Of a stretch of DNA of 64,000 bases, positions 2,712 through 44,878 are shown piece after piece. This DNA comes from a virus. The notes under the pieces are model-generated. The model was not told the origin of the DNA. It was given only the letters and a program-made list of their open reading frames with translations, and searched no databases. Position numbers and translations under genes: made by a program. The stretch lies in IMG/VR virus record IMGVR_UViG_3300035670_000068, positions 1 through 64,000 of that record. One strand, 5' to 3'. Within the stretch, counting starts at the first letter, position 1. Every line of letters begins with the position of its first letter.

Positions 2712-5700
2712 TAGGCTACCTCCCTTAGCCTGAGCTCAGCCTTGAGTTCGTCGAGCTCGGCTTTTAGCTCTTTGATAGCCTCGACCAACAGAGGAACCAG
2801 GCGCTCGTATTTCAGAGTCAGGTAGTTCTCACCAGACTTCGAGACGTTCGGGTCTTCCGATACGTCGAACGGAGCCAGCTCGACGGCCTCTGGAGCGACC
2901 TTCTTCACGTCCTGAGCGAGAAGGCCGATCTCTTTCTTGCCACGGTCGTATCCGAATGTCGCCGCCAACTCGTTAGCGTTGTAACGAACGCCGGTGAGTT
3001 GGGTCACAGACCACAGCGCGTTCTCGATAGGCTTGATGTTTTCCTTCAAGCGCTCGTCGGAGTAGTAGGCGATGATGTTGCCGGACGCTGCAATTTGGTT
3101 GGCGACGTACAGAGGCTTGCCGCCGTAGCAGCGCATCCATGTGGTGTCGGTCATGTGCCAGCCGCCGCCATAGGATTCCCAATAGATTCCGTTGCTGCCA
3201 GTTGAGCGCACCCACCCTGTTACATACTGTTCACCATTAACCTTAAAGCTCCCGCCGTACAATTCCAGCAAGTCATCGCTTGACAGAATCAGACGAACGT
3301 CAAAGTCGGTAGAGGCGTCATTGGAAAAGTCGAGGAATGGGGTTCCGCCGTTGGATCGCAACTCAGCCCAAGGAGCATGAGCTCCTCCCGTCATCGAAGT
3401 GGCGCCAGTAAAACTCGGAGAGGCAAGAGGCGCCTTCGCGTCCAAAGCTGCCTGCAAGCCATCGACGTTGCCGATGACGTGATTGTGACTGTCGTCGGTG
3501 ACGATCACTGCAATGCTGACGTTGGCCGAGCCATCGAAAGCGACCGAGCCAGATGCGTCGCCAGTCAGACTGATGGTACGGGCCGTCGTCAGCTTGTCGG
3601 CGGAGCCAGCGCTTGCAGCCTGTTGGTTCGCCAGAGCTGTGATCTGAGCTTGGAGCTTGCCGGCTGCAACGAGAATCGAGTCAGTGGCTGCAATAGCGGC
3701 GTTTGTCGATACGGACAGACCAGTCAGAGCTGCGGCACGAACGTCGGTGGCGAAGTCTCTCCAGGTCTTGTCACCTCGCCAGTAATGAACCGTGCCGCCA
3801 GCTGTGATCGCAGGCTCTTTTGTCGAGTCCGCAATGGTGATGTTCGCAGAGCCGTCGAAGGCCACGCCGTTGATCGTGCGCGAGGTCGCCAGCTTGGTAG
3901 CGGTTGCAGCGTTCTTACTGATGCTGATCGGCCAGTTGTTAGCAAAGTCCGTTGCGTCCACCTGGAGCAGAAGACCGCTTGCAGACCAGCCGATCTTGAC
4001 GATGTTTGTGCTCTGGCCCGCCCCGGTGCCTTGCTGAACAGGGGTGAAGCCCAGGGCAGCCTGTTTCCCGTCCAGGGCAGCCTGCAAGCCATCCACGTTG
4101 CTGATGACGTGGTTGTGACTGTCGTCTACAACCACCACGGTGATGGATGCGTTGGCGGAGCCGTCGAAAGACACCGAGCCTGTGGCATCGCCGGTTAGGG
4201 AGATCGTTCTTGCGGTGGCGAGCTTTGAAGCGGCTACAGCTGTGGCGCCGGCTCCCAGTGCTCCAACATCGGAGGCGTTGAGAGTGACAACTCCAGTTTT
4301 GCCGTTGACCGAGGAAACGGACTCGGTGTTGTCGATCTTGTAGAACTGATCCAGGTTCTTGGAGTAGACGAGCGTATCGCCAACGCCATAAACGTCAGTG
4401 CCGACCGTTCCACCGACCGTCACCTTCCAGAAAGCTGCGGTAGATGGTTTTGTCGGATACACACCAGAGGAAAGATCGATGGAGCCGAGTTCTGACATAG
4501 AGCCAGTTAAGCTACCTGCCGCCAAAACAGCCTGATCTCTGGCAGTTTCAGCAGCGGTCTTTGCAGACTCAGCAGCGGTCTTTGCAGTCTGAGCAGCGGT
4601 CTTGGCGGTTTCAGCAGCGGTCTTTGCAGACTCAGCCGCAGTTTTGCTTGCAGAGGCCGCAGTTGCAGAAGAGGCCGCATTAGATGCGCTTGTCGCCGCC
4701 TTGGTAGCGTGATGCTTCGCGGAGAACTTGCCAGTCTCCACAGCAACGTCAACCGCCTCTTCTGCCCACTTGCCAGCCTTCACCTCACTAGCGCTAGCAG
4801 CCGTTGCGCTGGTAGCCGCTGCAGATGCGCTGGTGGACGCCTCAGTAGCTTTTGTAGATGCGGTAGTTGCGCTGGTGGCGGCGGCGTTCTTGCTGCTGGT
4901 AGCGCTGGCCTCCAAGGAAACTACGTTGGACTGTCGGTTGGTTACGTCAGTCTGACGAGTAATCACATCGTTCTGGCGAGTAATCACATCGTTCTGGCGT
5001 GTCTGCGCGTCAGCAGCGCTGTTAGCTGCTGCAGTGGCGTGATGCTTAGCGGAATACTGACCACCGCTAACCGGGCCGCCAGTCTTTTCAGCCCAGTCCC
5101 TTGCAGTGTTCGACGAGGTTTGAGCAGAAGAAGCAGAGCTGGCGGCGTTAGCTTCTGCAGTTTGAGCGCCAGCCCTAGCCGTTTCAGCGGCAGTCTTTGC
5201 TGTTTCGGCTGCCGTCTTGGCAGCTTCAGCGGCGTTCTTGGCTGTCTGAGCTGCAGTTGCGGAGTTTGCGGCGCCAGTAGCGGAGCCGGCAGCGTTCGTT
5301 GCGCTGGTCGCAGCTTCACTCGCCTTCGTCGAAGCGGTGGTCGCTGAGGCTGCAGCGTTCGTTTCAGAGGTTGCGGCGGCATTCTTCGAAGCGGTAGCGG
5401 AGGTCGCTGAGCTCGATGCGCTGGTAGCCGACGCAGCAGCTTTCAGAGCGTGGTGCTTGGCGGAGAACTGGCCCGTTACAACGGCGGTGTTCTCTGGGTT
5501 CTCTGCCCACTTCTGAGCGAGCGTTGCCGAGGCCGCTGCGGCGTTTTTGTACCCGAGAATTTGATCAGCCCAGGTCTGCTGGTTGCCGATAGCTAAGAGT
5601 CGCGCTTCGGCGTCGGTCAGAGCGGCCTGAGTCTCGTCAATCAGGTCTTCCTGCTGCTGGACGCGAAGGTTGTGCTCGTAGTCGAGCTGTCGCGGGCTCT

Positions 5701-6097
5701 TCAGATAGACGGTCACGCCATAGCGATCTGTCATCGGGAACTTGCCGGCGTCTGCAGCTCCGGTCGTGACCGGCTCAGCGTTGATCCAATCAACGAACTC
5801 GTCGAGGGTTCGCTGACGGTCGGTCAGGAACTCTTCGATCTTCTTCATCAGATCGAAGTTGCTGGCGTTGGTCAGGTTGCGAATGATTGCGAACGGAACG
5901 CCGGTTAGGTTTGCTCCGGTCCAGGCGGTAGCCAGCTTGAGCTTGGTGTCGGATTCTGCGCGAACGATCTCGGTCAGAACGCCGTTCACCAGCAGAATGT
6001 CAGAGAAGCGAACTTCGGATTTGAAGGCGGTGCCGACGCCGACAACATCGACACTGCCGTTTACGAGGTTGATCTTGCCTTCGCGATACCAGGACAT
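2711..6097 (-). CDS. Long (side) tail fibre with C-terminal intramolecular chaperone (Peptidase S74)
   Basis: Ala/Ser/Thr-rich stalk, 3x WAE..G.[FY]SAKHHA, 3x KL.T.RTI..V.FDGSAN, C-terminal SDERLKENIKPI..YERLVPLLVEAIKEL. Confidence 0.9.
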   Translation of the reverse strand: MSWYREGKINLVNGSVDVVGVGTAFKSEVRFSDILLVNGVLTEIVRAESDTKLKLATAWTGANLTGVPFAIIRNLTNASNFDLMKKIEEFLTDRQRTLDEFVDWINAEPVTTGAADAGKFPMTDRYGVTVYLKSPRQLDYEHNLRVQQQEDLIDETQAALTDAEARLLAIGNQQTWADQILGYKNAAAASATLAQKWAENPENTAVVTGQFSAKHHALKAAASATSASSSATSATASKNAAATSETNAAASATTASTKASEAATSATNAAGSATGAANSATAAQTAKNAAEAAKTAAETAKTAAETARAGAQTAEANAASSASSAQTSSNTARDWAEKTGGPVSGGQYSAKHHATAAANSAADAQTRQNDVITRQNDVITRQTDVTNRQSNVVSLEASATSSKNAAATSATTASTKATEASTSASAAATSATAASASEVKAGKWAEEAVDVAVETGKFSAKHHATKAATSASNAASSATAASASKTAAESAKTAAETAKTAAQTAKTAAESAKTAAETARDQAVLAAGSLTGSMSELGSIDLSSGVYPTKPSTAAFWKVTVGGTVGTDVYGVGDTLVYSKNLDQFYKIDNTESVSSVNGKTGVVTLNASDVGALGAGATAVAASKLATARTISLTGDATGSVSFDGSANASITVVVVDDSHNHVISNVDGLQAALDGKQAALGFTPVQQGTGAGQSTNIVKIGWSASGLLLQVDATDFANNWPISISKNAATATKLATSRTINGVAFDGSANITIADSTKEPAITAGGTVHYWRGDKTWRDFATDVRAAALTGLSVSTNAAIAATDSILVAAGKLQAQITALANQQAASAGSADKLTTARTISLTGDASGSVAFDGSANVSIAVIVTDDSHNHVIGNVDGLQAALDAKAPLASPSFTGATSMTGGAHAPWAELRSNGGTPFLDFSNDASTDFDVRLILSSDDLLELYGGSFKVNGEQYVTGWVRSTGSNGIYWESYGGGWHMTDTTWMRCYGGKPLYVANQIAASGNIIAYYSDERLKENIKPIENALWSVTQLTGVRYNANELAATFGYDRGKKEIGLLAQDVKKVAPEAVELAPFDVSEDPNVSKSGENYLTLKYERLVPLLVEAIKELKAELDELKAELRLREVA

Positions 6098-6148
6098 TGC
6101 CCACACCTAGAAAAATCTGAATGAGCAGTATTATAACTAACTAAGGCG

Positions 6149-6529
6149 TTAGTTAGTAGTCCAACGCTCCAAGCGGAGATCAGCCATCGTGACCCGATCA
6201 CCTGCTTCGAGAGCGTCTTTCAGCTCCTTGGCCCGTTGGAAGACGTTCAGCGTGTGCCGGCCCATCAGGCTCTCCGCTTTGACCATCAGATCGTACAGTT
6301 CGGCCCGGTTCATCCTCGCACTGGTGTTGTCGTAAAAGAACCACTCGACCTCTTCACCCTCTTCCATACTGGAGATCACGTCGCGCATCCGCTGCCTGCT
6401 GATGTTGTCAAACTGGAGCAGCTTTCCTTCCACTCGAATGACGGTCTCAGCAATGCGCCTGGAAGAGTTGATATCGCCCTTGGTGGCCTCGATCAGCGAT
6501 CTCGGATCGTGATTACCCAACGATGGCAT
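6149..6529 (-). CDS. Tail fibre assembly-like protein (DUF4376-like)
   Basis: Position next to fibre; FD..SRQRM..VEWFFYDNTS pattern. Confidence 0.55.
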   Translation of the reverse strand: MPSLGNHDPRSLIEATKGDINSSRRIAETVIRVEGKLLQFDNISRQRMRDVISSMEEGEEVEWFFYDNTSARMNRAELYDLMVKAESLMGRHTLNVFQRAKELKDALEAGDRVTMADLRLERWTTN

Positions 6530-40836: not shown

Positions 40837-41105
40837 TTTGCTTACTCCGCTTGGTTGTGAAAGGTTAGCTCCGTAGCCCGCTCTCCCCTATTCCCGTTTT
40901 CGTCGTGACTCCCGGCAGTCCCATAACCCGTAGGTTGTGTAAGGGGTGAGGTTCTAGATTCCTCCTGCCGGCTGTGTAAGGACGACTTCCGGGTATTCGG
41001 CTCGCAGGCTCCTGTAGGGCCAGACTGTTAAACTTTTTTCTAAGACTTTGACACTTTGCATATATGCGCAAGTGTTCTAGATTCACACTCGCATATATAC
41101 ATATA

Positions 41106-41285
41106 TTATTGTTCGATAATATCATTCATCGCTTTAATATATAACTTCGCGCTTATTGCTTTAAGTGCGCGCATTTTCATCAGCTCAAACAATTGCGCTG
41201 CAACTTCAAACGATACAACTTTAACGCGATACTTCGTACTAACAATTACGCAGTCAGCGTTAATAACTCGAATATTGATGCTCAT
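41106..41285 (-). CDS. 59-aa Gly/Pro/Trp-free protein (not in ORF track)
   Basis: MSINIRVINADCVIVSTKYRVKVVSFEVAAQLFELMKMRALKAISAKLYIKAMNDIIEQ; GG-free SD-like GAGAG. Confidence 0.6.
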   Translation of the reverse strand: MSINIRVINADCVIVSTKYRVKVVSFEVAAQLFELMKMRALKAISAKLYIKAMNDIIEQ

Positions 41286-41312
41286 ATATAATCTCTCGCT
41301 TATTTAATTATA

Positions 41313-41349
41313 TATCTAGTGAGTTAGCTATTAACTAACTCACTAGATA
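41313..41349. repeat. 15-bp perfect inverted repeat with 7-bp spacer
   Basis: TATCTAGTGAGTTAG-ctattaa-CTAACTCACTAGATA. Confidence 0.85.
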
Positions 41350-41358
41350 GTGTACAAG

Positions 41359-41904
41359 TTACTTGCTGTAAACTTCGAGCAATGCTTTCAGAAACGCATT
41401 GCTATAATCGAAAGTTACTTTCTTATCACTTGCGCTGTACTGCGCGAAGCTAAAGAACTGAGCGAAAGTCTTAAAGTAGCTTGCTTGCGTCAGCGTTTCG
41501 TGCTGCATCTCGCGCTTGATCTGTTCGAGCGTCAAGCTAGCGTCGTGCTTTGCTGCGAGTCGCTGCAGCAGCGCGTCAAGCGCTTTGTCGCGTACTCGCG
41601 CAGAGTGCGCGACAGCTTCGAGCATTGCGATAGAACGCTTCTTACACTCGCGCGACTGCTGAGCGAGCTGCTTAGCGTCGAGCTTGTGCGAGTGCAGCAG
41701 CGCTAGCGCTTTTTCGCTCATATCTGCGAGCGCTTGAGTGTAAGTCTCGTGAGTGTGAGCGCGCTTTGCTGTTTTAGTGAGTGCGTCGCGCTCTTCTTGA
41801 GCTTCGACACTTTCGAGCTTTTGCAGCGCTTCATTTTTAACGCTTTCGTGCTCGTTAGCAGCTACAGCGAAAACATTCTTGATTGCTTCGATTGCTTTAG
41901 TCAT
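41359..41904 (-). CDS. 181-aa Gly/Pro/Trp-free helical protein
   Basis: MTKAIEAIK..LLEVYSK; SD-like AAGAGAGAG; upstream in-frame extension in the ORF track is probably UTR/promoter. Confidence 0.8.
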   Translation of the reverse strand: MTKAIEAIKNVFAVAANEHESVKNEALQKLESVEAQEERDALTKTAKRAHTHETYTQALADMSEKALALLHSHKLDAKQLAQQSRECKKRSIAMLEAVAHSARVRDKALDALLQRLAAKHDASLTLEQIKREMQHETLTQASYFKTFAQFFSFAQYSASDKKVTFDYSNAFLKALLEVYSK

Positions 41905-42073
41905 GATTTTTCTCTCTCTTGAAAATTGCGCTTTTTGCGCTATTGATTTAAGTTTGATTTTCTTTGCTTCATTGTGCGCGACAGACTGCGCGCAGATAAA
42001 GCATCGATCTAGATTGTTAAAGAGCGTCGAGCTTTTCAGCTCTAGAGAGTGTGTTTCGTCTCTCTTGATGCAC

Positions 42074-42240
42074 AGTTTACAGCGTACAGGAACAGCGTCA
42101 AGCGTTTTTTGAGAAAAAATAGAATTTTTTCGACTTTTTTTAGTGCTCAAAAAATGATCAGTTTTGACTATCTATTACATGCGCGCACGCGAGTAGGACA
42201 GCTAGAAAAGTCTGTCAAGCGTTTTTTGTGCAAAATAGAA
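42074..42240 (-). promoter_or_regulatory. Tandem sigma70-like promoters with A/T-tract UP elements
   Basis: TTGACG(42101-42096)-16 nt-TAAACT(42079-42074); second TTGACA at 42218-42213 with weak -10; shared GTCAAGCGTTTTTTG repeat. Confidence 0.6.
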
Positions 42241-42271
42241 AATTCGCAAAAGTCAAGAAGATTTTTTTGGG

Positions 42272-42391
42272 TGAGGATCATCCGCATCGGCGGGCCGTCC
42301 GCACTTGAGGAACTCCCACGGATAAGGAAGGACCACGGTTGAGGATGATCCGCATCCGGGTCCACAGCCGTGGGTGAGGACGATCCGCATC
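42272..42391 (+). repeat. Three 17-bp iteron-like direct repeats TGAGGAYSATCCGCATC
   Basis: 42272-42288, 42340-42356, 42375-42391. Confidence 0.85.
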
Positions 42392-42603
42392 CGCAGCCAA
42401 GGGCGATCCTCAACCGAGGATCAGCCGTGGTGGTATGGCGCTCCCGCCACGGGGCTTGTTCATCCGGCAGCCTTATACCTAAAGGCCGCCATAGGAAAAT
42501 TCCTGGGCCACGGCTATCCCTATATAGGCGCTATGGAAACTCCCACGGTGACTCCCGGACTGACAAAAGAGCAGCTGCGGTGAACAACTGCTCTTGGCTG
42601 TGA

Positions 42604-42840
42604 TCAGTATTCAGCGGTCATGCTGACGAGATCATGGGGATCGTCTTGGTAGTAGTCGTCGAACAGCTTGGCGATAGCTCGCTCTTTGTCGGTGAGCACA
42701 ACAAACGGTCGTTCGTTCAGGTGCTCAGAGAAGACTTGAAAGTTGGCAGACGGGATGTGCTCGATGCGGCGTTCGACGATCTCGACGGTCAGCATGTCGG
42801 TGGATTCGTCGTACTGGACTACGGTGATTTCGTTTTTCAT
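42604..42840 (-). CDS. 78-aa acidic Gly/Trp-free protein
   Basis: SD-like GAGAG, upstream TAAAAT -10; no GG on coding strand. Confidence 0.75.
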   Translation of the reverse strand: MKNEITVVQYDESTDMLTVEIVERRIEHIPSANFQVFSEHLNERPFVVLTDKERAIAKLFDDYYQDDPHDLVSMTAEY

Positions 42841-43075
42841 CTGGTTTCGATCTCTCGGTCTGTTCAGCGTCGAAGTGCGCTGAATCAGAGCGCATTTTAT
42901 CGTGCTGAGAACGGCAAGAGACGGCTCCTAAGCGTTTAGACGAGCTCACCCACGGGTTTTCTCAAACCTCGCTCAAAACGGCTTATAGAGCGTTCTAGAG
43001 GGGTATGCGCGTGGCCGGAATCCGGTGGACTGGACCTTACACGCGCATGGCCTGGTTTATATGGACTGGACCTGG

Positions 43076-43360
43076 TTAGACCAGCTCTTCCAGGCGAACC
43101 GACTTCTTGGACGGTGCTCGGGTCTGGAAGTCTTCCTGAGAAACGGGCTTGTACGTCCCGGCTTCGAGCTCGGCCAGGTATTTTTCCCATTCAGCTTGCT
43201 TGAGGTTGGCGGGTTTCTTACCAGGCTTCTGGTTCAGGATGGGCTTGATGTTTTCAGGGCTGGCGTAGCGGGTGACCTCCCCGCCGTAAATCTGCTCGTA
43301 GCGCTCGGTTTCGTGAGCGAGCATGGCGCGTAGTGCTTCTTTGCTCATGGCTTTACTCAT
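43076..43360 (-). CDS. Hypothetical protein
   Basis: SD GGGAG. Confidence 0.65.
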   Translation of the reverse strand: MSKAMSKEALRAMLAHETERYEQIYGGEVTRYASPENIKPILNQKPGKKPANLKQAEWEKYLAELEAGTYKPVSQEDFQTRAPSKKSVRLEELV

Positions 43361-43561
43361 GGTTGAAGACTCCCGTTTGGTTTAGCTGATTCATCTGGCA
43401 GCGTCTAGCGCGCTGCTCAGACTTGAGTCTATCAACTATCTAACGGGCTAGTGAGTCTTGCGTAACTAAGCCCTTAGTGCTACCGGGTGCCAAGGGAGCC
43501 GTGGTGTGCCGTGGGTAAGCCTGCTCAAAAGAGAGCACCGTTGTAGGCGCTCTCCGGTAGA

Positions 43562-43798: not shown

Positions 43799-44878
43799 TT
43801 TTGCTTCTCTCGTCAGTGCAGCCTCTAGCGTGCTGCTCGACTTGTATTGTCTCAACTGACAAGCGGCATGAGCTGGCTCCCGGAGAGTGGTAACTGGCTA
43901 GCCGTGGTGCAGCCGTGGGTGAGCCTTATCCTGGGTAGACCTTGGTTCTGCCGTGGCGATGATCCGGGATTTACCGAGTGCCTACTGGTAAGCCGTGGTG
44001 CAGCCTATTCAGGTAGTGCCGTGGCTCACCAGGACTGCCAAGGTGTGCCTTGGAGCTGCCACGGTTGCCGTGGGTATTTCTACGGCAGCGCCTAACCGTG
44101 GCTAATTGGAAACCCAGCCTTATATATAAAAGGCCCTATGGAAAAATTCCCGCGCATGTACATGCCGTGGCGTGTATAGGCAAAAAAATAGCCCGATTAG
44201 AGGGGTTAGCTCTAACCGGGCTCAACAGTCAGTGGTTCGGGGAGACTGACTGAAACGAGAGGGAGGGTATTACAGCGCGCCCCCTGCCTGGCGCTGAAAC
44301 CGTTTAGCTGAGCTTGTTCCTGATCTTGACCAGTTCCCGGTGGCAATCGATCAGCTTGAACCAGACCAGTAGTAAGACTATTACACCAAGAGCCACTGGA
44401 ACCATTTTGCGACCTATCTCTTTAGGTGCAGACTGGTTAAAAATCTAACCAGTCTATACTCAATCTTTTAGCCAGCTGACTGACGTTCTGTCTGTCTCGC
44501 TGCTCAGTTACTAGAACTATACAGACTGACTAGAGGCTGATCTTGTCTGCCAGGTAGGTAGAACTGTAATTCCAGAGGCATTACTACAGGTTGCCGTGGC
44601 AAAGGATAGAAACCACAACCAGACCAATCTAGTCTCGTACCTGTGTGTACCAGCGCACCCGTGGCCGGAATCTCATGGACTGGACCAAGCCTGGTAGCCA
44701 AGGACCGATGGACTCCTGTTCTGGTGAATGGGAGAGCGGTTAGAACGAGAGCGGGCTGCCGGGTGGTGTAAGAAAAGTTTTAGAACGGCTGAACGCACGA
44801 TGATTTGAATACAACCACCCCACCAATCTTTACTCTTACCTATTACACATCCCCTCTATGGTTCTCCATTTCCTTCCC

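Follow-up and report, generated by a model that had tools for sequence, protein, structure and literature searches.

A predicted leftward transcription unit purged of GG on its sense strand in an uncultured relative of the Nickievirus phages

Avoidance of a motif is the footprint of an interaction, and the locus described here raises the question of which interaction could have removed one dinucleotide completely from one strand of a short stretch of phage DNA. A total, strand-specific purge of this kind implies a strong selective agent acting in transcription or on mRNA. The window, a stretch of 64,000 nucleotides, is the first part of a 110,316-bp viral contig (IMGVR_UViG_3300035670_000068) from an uncultured phage; a 127-nt overlap closes this contig on itself, and it gives no physical genome ends. 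The relatives of the phage are 112-kb Pseudomonas syringae phages of the genus Nickievirus (nickie, Nican01, ZY21, phiK7B1, and hairong), and core genes are common to the Nickievirus relatives and SSU5-like phages.

The features of the window on which the argument turns are as follows.

42556 to 42927, plus strand: run of 372 nt free of CC (equivalently, a minus, RNA-like strand free of GG), with 25 GG on the plus strand
42894 to 42917, minus strand: promoter-like element TTGCCG-N12-TAAAAT, putative in function, with a -10-like TAAAAT at 42894 to 42899
42852 to 42856, minus strand: GAGAG ribosome-binding site, itself without GG
42604 to 42840, minus strand: gene for a 78-aa acidic protein, an open reading frame with homologues and a confident predicted fold
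42563 to 42595, minus strand: terminator-like 12-bp hairpin and U tract (hairpin at 42567 to 42595, z = -3.6)
42283 to 42555: spacer between the 78-aa unit and the main island, with 30 CC and 32 GG in 273 nt
41019 to 42282, minus strand: main island, with no GG on the minus strand throughout

The initial annotation had described a plus-strand stretch rich in GG and without CC, and that stretch is real. Positions 42556 to 42927 hold no CC where base composition predicts 18, the bounding CCs lying at 42555-6 and 42927-8. GG on the same strand (25 observed, 36 expected) is near the genome-wide observed/expected ratio of 0.8, and CC on the RNA-like strand of the unit reaches or slightly exceeds its expected level (18 against 13.9). 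Among the CC-free runs of the 110,316-bp genome, the run of 372 nt is second in length, after the 1262 nt of the island (41021 to 42282) and before a run of 149 nt. The longest CC-free run in 60 genomes generated by a first-order Markov model averaged 160 nt, with a maximum of 209, and 20,000 mononucleotide shuffles of the region gave a minimum of six CC (Poisson P ~2e-8). When the protein was held fixed and synonymous codons were resampled from the codon usage of the genome, the mean number of sense GG in the 78-aa gene was 6.9 and the probability of finding none was 1.5e-4; permutation of the gene's own codons gave P=0.046 for zero sense GG. The 135 noncoding nucleotides within the run, in which about 8 GG are expected at intergenic density, likewise hold none (P ~3.5e-4).

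There is a negligible probability that chance, base composition, or a wrong gene call accounts for this pattern. The gene is short, and the permutation of its own codons yields only a marginal value, but the Markov and shuffle controls exclude chance, the pattern is kept in a homologue of 29% identity, and a confident fold together with a family of 16 members argues against a wrong call. An antisense open reading frame of 101 aa on the plus strand was considered as the gene and rejected; the 78-aa frame has 15 diverged homologues and a predicted fold with a mean pLDDT of 92. Purifying selection excludes every GG from the RNA-like strand of the unit and leaves CC untouched, and this selection is real, strand specific, and tied to transcription.

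The tie to transcription appears in the anatomy of the run, which, as predicted from sequence features, corresponds to one complete leftward transcription unit from promoter to terminator. The earlier statement that the run spans the entire 78-aa minus-strand gene, its GAGAG site, and a promoter-like element was borne out, and the terminator-like hairpin proved to be included as well. The nearest downstream sense GG (42555-42556) lies 7 nt past the U tract, and the nearest upstream sense GG precedes the predicted start site by about 40 nt. Both here and in the homologous unit of a related phage (L015, below), the word is absent along the sense strand of the predicted transcript, untranslated parts included, but not along the antisense strand. 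The putative promoter has a counterpart upstream of the homologue in that phage (TTGCCA-N12-TATAAT, L015:2840-2861), and the 12-nt spacing of the element looks unlike that of a sigma-70 -35/-10 pair. The promoters of the two GG-free homologues share the pattern TTGCCR-N12-TAWAATGC.

The spacer at 42283 to 42555 holds a cluster of the words CCGTGG and CCACGG. Copies of these words are concentrated in this part of the genome, 21 of 27 lying within 42 to 46 kb (42283 to 42555, 43400 to 43560, and 43860 to 44200), and the spacers that bear them, between GG-free units, are apparently nontranscribed. In relatives, the same spacers carry CCGCGG/CCATGG (nickie, Nican01, and L004) or TTCCGCCAGRYGG repeats (L015). 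Contigs of relatives from four sequencing runs cover the unit (compared over 42300 to 43100). In one run, X5, a relative's contig joins 42482 to 42850 and omits the 78-aa gene unit; the evidence for this junction is weak (a short side of 21 nt, 80% likeness), and it fits a slot that holds different genes in different relatives.

Related loci, chosen as those holding homologues of the island protein, allow the purge to be followed across lineages. L015 is a locus from a phage of 108 kb, and the island protein of this phage shares 60% identity with that of the window. The L015 homologue of the 78-aa protein (P0005, at 2915 to 3151) is 29% identical, and lies in a 404-nt run (2808 to 3211) whose sense strand has no GG and 27 CC, with borders as in the window, from the TTGCCA-N12-TATAAT element to a terminator hairpin. 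Holding the P0005 protein fixed puts the probability of zero GG in its gene below 2e-4; the CC content of the gene is normal. In Nican01 the homologue, at about 30-40% identity, carries 4 sense GG where 12.1 are expected (P<2e-4); CC is normal there too, and a 177-nt GG-free stretch spans the promoter, the leader, and the first 27 codons. In nickie the same slot holds a nonhomologous gene with 6 sense GG against 15.1 expected (P=2e-4), again with normal CC. The slot gene is ordinary in hairong and ZY21, so the upstream slot is not always purged. A search for GG in homologues had been proposed as a test, and its outcome is divided: the absence from L015 and the depletion in Nican01 agree with the original idea, and two close homologues that hold at least one GG each do not.

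The main island extends the comparison. GG is absent from its minus strand throughout, but minus-strand CC is absent only at 41019 to 42089, and the 5' leader (42090 to 42282) is purged of sense GG only, with CC present. A leader with CC and without sense GG is found in five phages (this phage, nickie, Nican01, L004, and L015), and the opposite pattern was not encountered. Between the two island genes lies a near-perfect 18-nt inverted repeat (41313 to 41349; 17/18 complementary, with a 1-nt gap), operator-like or terminator-like in form. The island protein gave no sequence match in the PDB and no Atlas lead, and scans of genome contigs and metagenome contigs with it returned no new lineage.

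The related loci refine the identity of the banned word. In L009/L010 and in one gene of L022, GGA and TCC occur at their expected frequencies, and GGB and VCC are observed 0 to 1 times against 11 to 32 expected; in L009 and L022 the words banned on the two strands are exact complements. L011, whose island protein is closely related to that of L009, has a sense-only ban (GGB 3 and 0 against 13.7 and 11.5 expected) with VCC normal. The homologous genes L009:4727-5784 and L011:5851-6852 ban the same word, GGB, the former on both strands and the latter on the sense strand only. In the window itself all GG is absent, and this window alone cannot separate GGA from GGB. An open reading frame divergent from the island gene in L021 has no GG and 6 CC on its own sense strand, which tentatively indicates that the purged strand flips with gene orientation; the indication comes from one orphan frame, for which homologues were not found.

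L022 carries two paralogs of the island protein (2851 to 3402 and 5674 to 6195), one constrained and the other essentially unconstrained, and in the constrained paralog only GGA and TCC are allowed (GGB 1 against 14.4 expected, VCC 0 against 27.1). This contrast implies that the ban belongs to the locus or its expression and not to the protein family. A proline-rich gene just downstream of the island has roughly half the expected sense GG in hairong (L029:3678-4076; 11 against 22.9) and ZY21 (L030:3607-4077; 19 against 30.1), with CC normal or high, and homologous genes are found in nickie and Nican01; the gene appears to represent a third, graded tier of this bias. The loci form a hierarchy in which the ban on sense GG or GGB is the stricter one in every case, the complementary word is banned only in core units, and neighboring genes are graded.

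The strand rule bears directly on the most familiar cause of missing words in phage DNA, the avoidance of sites recognized on double-stranded DNA, whether restriction sites or CRISPR protospacer-adjacent motifs (CC for type I-F, NGG for Cas9), with the one-sidedness incidental. Site avoidance is indeed strong in this phage: the 110-kb genome lacks 28 of the 64 six-base palindromes altogether (e.g., GAATTC, GGATCC, CCATGG, CCGCGG, and CCCGGG; AGATCT has an expectation of 43), and among the 4032 nonpalindromic hexamers only 17 are missing. In its avoidance of type II sites the genome is extreme, and the adjoining island is purged on both strands. However, zero CC against 25 GG on one strand is not symmetric, the one-sided pattern recurs in L015, L011, and L021 and follows gene orientation, and a patch without protospacer-adjacent motifs would be useless while the remaining genome carries them. 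Palindrome avoidance is a feature separate from the strand-specific purge of GG. The argument of the initial annotation, that neither palindromic restriction nor protospacer-adjacent motifs predict strand asymmetry, holds, since the purge follows the sense strand here and in those three loci. The strand rule rules out ordinary restriction and protospacer-adjacent-motif models for these units, and we regard double-strand site avoidance as very unlikely.

A second group of explanations places the avoidance at translation, with Shine-Dalgarno-like sequences, CsrA/Rsm sites (GGA), or GGAG sites of the T4 RegB type as the word shunned. Ribosome-binding sites in the window are suggestive, in that the three GG-free genes (the 78-aa gene and the two island genes) all use the GAGAG type and 71% of the other genes carry GG in the ribosome-site window. 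Yet in L009, L011, and L022, AGGA/GGAG ribosome sites are present and GGA occurs at its expected frequency while GGB is absent. Because the lineages that ban GGB tolerate GGA and AGGA, the avoided word is not the Shine-Dalgarno, CsrA, or RegB word; this distinction rules out models built on ribosome binding, CsrA, and RegB, and leaves avoidance at the level of translation very improbable indeed.

The protein encoded by the unit is acidic (pI 4.4) and contains no Gly, no Trp, and 3 Pro; the genome averages are 7.5% for Gly and 1.1% for Trp. Its predicted fold, three strands followed by three helices, has a mean pLDDT of 92 (a first prediction had been poor, with a pLDDT of 55). No significant match to the protein was found in Pfam or PHROGs, and no clear match to the fold in the PDB and BFVD (Foldseek) or in a wide VIA search, the best hit having a Z of 4.2 and a PX-like topology. 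Searches for the family in viral contigs (queries: the single protein, A1, A7, and A9) and in metagenome contigs (query A1) gave no match; in tblastn against GenBank phages the protein itself had no match and the Nican01 homologue found only Nican01. Several phages with the island protein (nickie, hairong, ZY21, and L004) lack the family.

The family comprises small acidic proteins (pI 4.1 to 5.3; 16 representatives). Only this protein and P0005 are Gly-free among the 16, as is P0004 from outside the set; the remaining representatives have 1 to 7 Gly each, and Gly averages 2.5% over the family, compared with 7.5% across the genome. For the Logan homologues P0002-P0004 and the representatives P0006-P0019, the comparison covers the Gly and Trp content of the protein only. 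The lack of Gly and Trp to which the initial annotation drew attention is therefore true of this protein and not a family trait. About half of the family has a Gly in the C-terminal region, where the GG-free members have Ser, Asn, or Asp, and the loss of this conserved Gly near the C terminus appears to be a protein-level cost of the purge. In two close homologues, at 86% and 82% identity, this one Gly is retained, which implies at least one GG in each of their genes. The selection behind the ban on GG is strong, and the ban is complete in some lineages but partial in others.

A deficit of this kind might suggest that the codons for Gly and Trp are themselves shunned, their tRNAs being scarce or cleaved early in infection. 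The composition of the 78-aa protein would fit, and so would the tRNA genes of these phages (tRNA-Trp in this phage, tRNA-Gly and tRNA-Trp in Nican01). Against it, noncoding GG is absent too, not only from the 135 nt counted here but from about 490 nt over four lineages (P ~3e-13); codon junctions are GG-free, at the permutation value given above for this gene and at P<5e-5 for the island gene; and L022 uses Trp codons only where the next base is A. We consider an origin in codons or tRNAs scarcely tenable.

The complementarity of GGB and VCC in L009 and L022 carries a different implication, pointing to one reader that sees both strands there and not to a purely mRNA-level effect. It qualifies the earlier expectation that this unit would discriminate between models for the main island, which the asymmetry at the unit does only in part. 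The main rival to the explanation that we favor starts from this point. A nick or bulky mark on the strand carrying CC (VCC in some lineages) would block RNA polymerase only when on the template; early units would clear CC from their template strand, and the most critical ones would clear both strands. Template-strand nicks and bulky adducts stall RNA polymerases, and those on the nontemplate strand are largely bypassed. Strand-specific nicking enzymes with short words also exist, as in the chlorovirus enzyme Nt.CviPII (CCD). A single reader at the DNA level would account for the complementary GGB and VCC and for the sense-GG orientation always being stricter, and the promoter region lies within the purge.

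Several observations weigh against such a lesion. Both strands of the remaining genome carry CC at normal density and would be exposed to the lesion as well, and no candidate nickase was identified. Searches of the genome for DNA-modifying enzymes (PF00145, PF01555, and PF01702, covering C5 methylases, N4/N6 methylases, and TGT/DpdA) gave no match, with working controls, and the absence of 28 of the 64 palindromes suggests that the phage DNA is unmodified. The initial annotation had proposed either a polymerase-blocking mark on template-strand CC or an RNase cutting GG in mRNA, and either model may hold; these results weaken the version in which the mark is on virion DNA, which is less likely, and the mark itself stays in place as the main rival. 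Overall, we judge a template-strand lesion to be rather unlikely.

Our preferred explanation, which we put forward tentatively, is that an activity in the infected cell reading GG on single-stranded nucleic acid, mainly mRNA, selected GG-free early units. Such an activity would recognize GG, or only GGB in some lineages, with mRNA as its main substrate; it could also reach sense DNA displaced in transcription, and either DNA strand when unwound. Each GG would be an independent hazard, through cleavage or chemical modification, so that the few genes needed while the activity is unchecked would lose all sites, and the rest of the genome could keep normal GG, since it would be expressed later, with the hazard neutralized or past. 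The 78-aa acidic protein would then be one of the first-acting early proteins, and the reader would be either an effector of host defense or a shut-off enzyme encoded by the phage.

A reader acting on mRNA would explain why the borders of the purge match those of the predicted transcript. The graded depletion in neighboring genes fits a hazard that accrues per site, and normal GG elsewhere in the genome is easier to reconcile with a transient or RNA-level hazard than with irreversible cutting of DNA. Across loci, it is the sense strand that stays constant in the purge (L011, the leaders of five phages, and L021), and this constancy supports a sense-strand reader. A purely mRNA-level reader leaves the ban on CC in the core island unexplained, and the complementary pair GGB and VCC still more so; we infer the extension to unwound DNA to cover this complementary ban in core islands. 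In four lineages the purge reaches about 40 to 60 nt upstream of the predicted start site, which an RNA-only model does not require and which may reflect promoter composition.

To our knowledge, neither an RNase specific for GG or GGB nor a GG-specific RNA modifier has been described. A GG-specific RNase or RNA modifier was not found in the genome; a search of the genome for the RegB family, run without a working control, gave no match; and in the literature we found no paper describing phage genes free of GG or a toxin specific for GG. DarT1, an enzyme that ADP-ribosylates guanine in single-stranded DNA (PMC11543638), was considered as the reader and rejected, because it has no consensus motif (PMC11543638).

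The purge is bounded by the predicted promoter and terminator, appears to cost a conserved Gly, and persists to 29% protein identity. Sense-GG-free units of this kind are a signature that could pick out the first-acting early genes in uncultured phages. It is conceivable, if doubtful, that a single-strand-specific enzyme reading GG or GGB, whether an immune effector or a phage shut-off nuclease or modifier, is spread across many bacterial groups. If so, sense-GG-free units would mark phage genes that must work in the presence of that enzyme, and the 78-aa family and the island protein would be new counterdefense or shut-off components. The cultured relatives Nican01 and nickie make the idea testable, and a simple reporter design could serve to find the reader.

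Known systems offer partial parallels to both leading explanations. Nt.CviPII, with its asymmetric three-base CC word on one strand, is a precedent for the template lesion, although the degenerate base stands on the other side of CC (CCD, against VCC here). Chloroviruses with nicking enzymes protect their own DNA by a cognate methylase; unlike them, this phage yielded no such methylase. For the single-strand reader that we prefer, the closest models act on RNA. MazF with its ACA-less mRNAs and T4 RegB, which cuts at GGAG, are sequence-specific endoribonucleases, and the purge resembles the ACA-less case in that the word is missing from the sense strand only and from the whole mRNA, which would make the message immune while others are cut. 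It differs from both in that the lineages banning GGB tolerate the GGAG of RegB and that the adjoining island also bans the complementary word.

Dinucleotides are likewise suppressed in the RNA of animal viruses, CpG against ZAP and UpA against RNase L. There, as here, selection acts against a dinucleotide on the RNA strand, graded by the number of sites; unlike that suppression, which is genome-wide and partial and has known readers, the purge described here is total, confined to a few units, and found in a DNA phage. The CmdTAC defense system reportedly ADP-ribosylates GA in single-stranded mRNA. This bacterial immune effector recognizes a dinucleotide on single-stranded RNA, and a reader of that kind is what the favored model needs, but its word is GA, and neither a Cmd-like gene nor an enzyme specific for GG was identified here.

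The broader logic may be that of site-free early phage DNA. Early DNA is reported to be free of sites in the first-step-transfer region of T5/BF23, and in the early-injected region of T7-like phages facing type I restriction (PMC10644984, PMC12455610). The locus described here differs from those regions in that the word is a dinucleotide, is purged from one strand only, and is bounded by transcription unit borders, in a contig that shows no physical ends. Compared with pre-early DNA of the T5 type, the unit is word-free on one strand only, and both CC and GG are frequent in the spacers that separate the units. What it would have in common with the T5/BF23 and T7-like regions is a small, putatively early block from which a short word, the potential target of a host nuclease, has been removed although it persists elsewhere in the genome, and with it the shared logic that the genes expressed first must be intrinsically immune.
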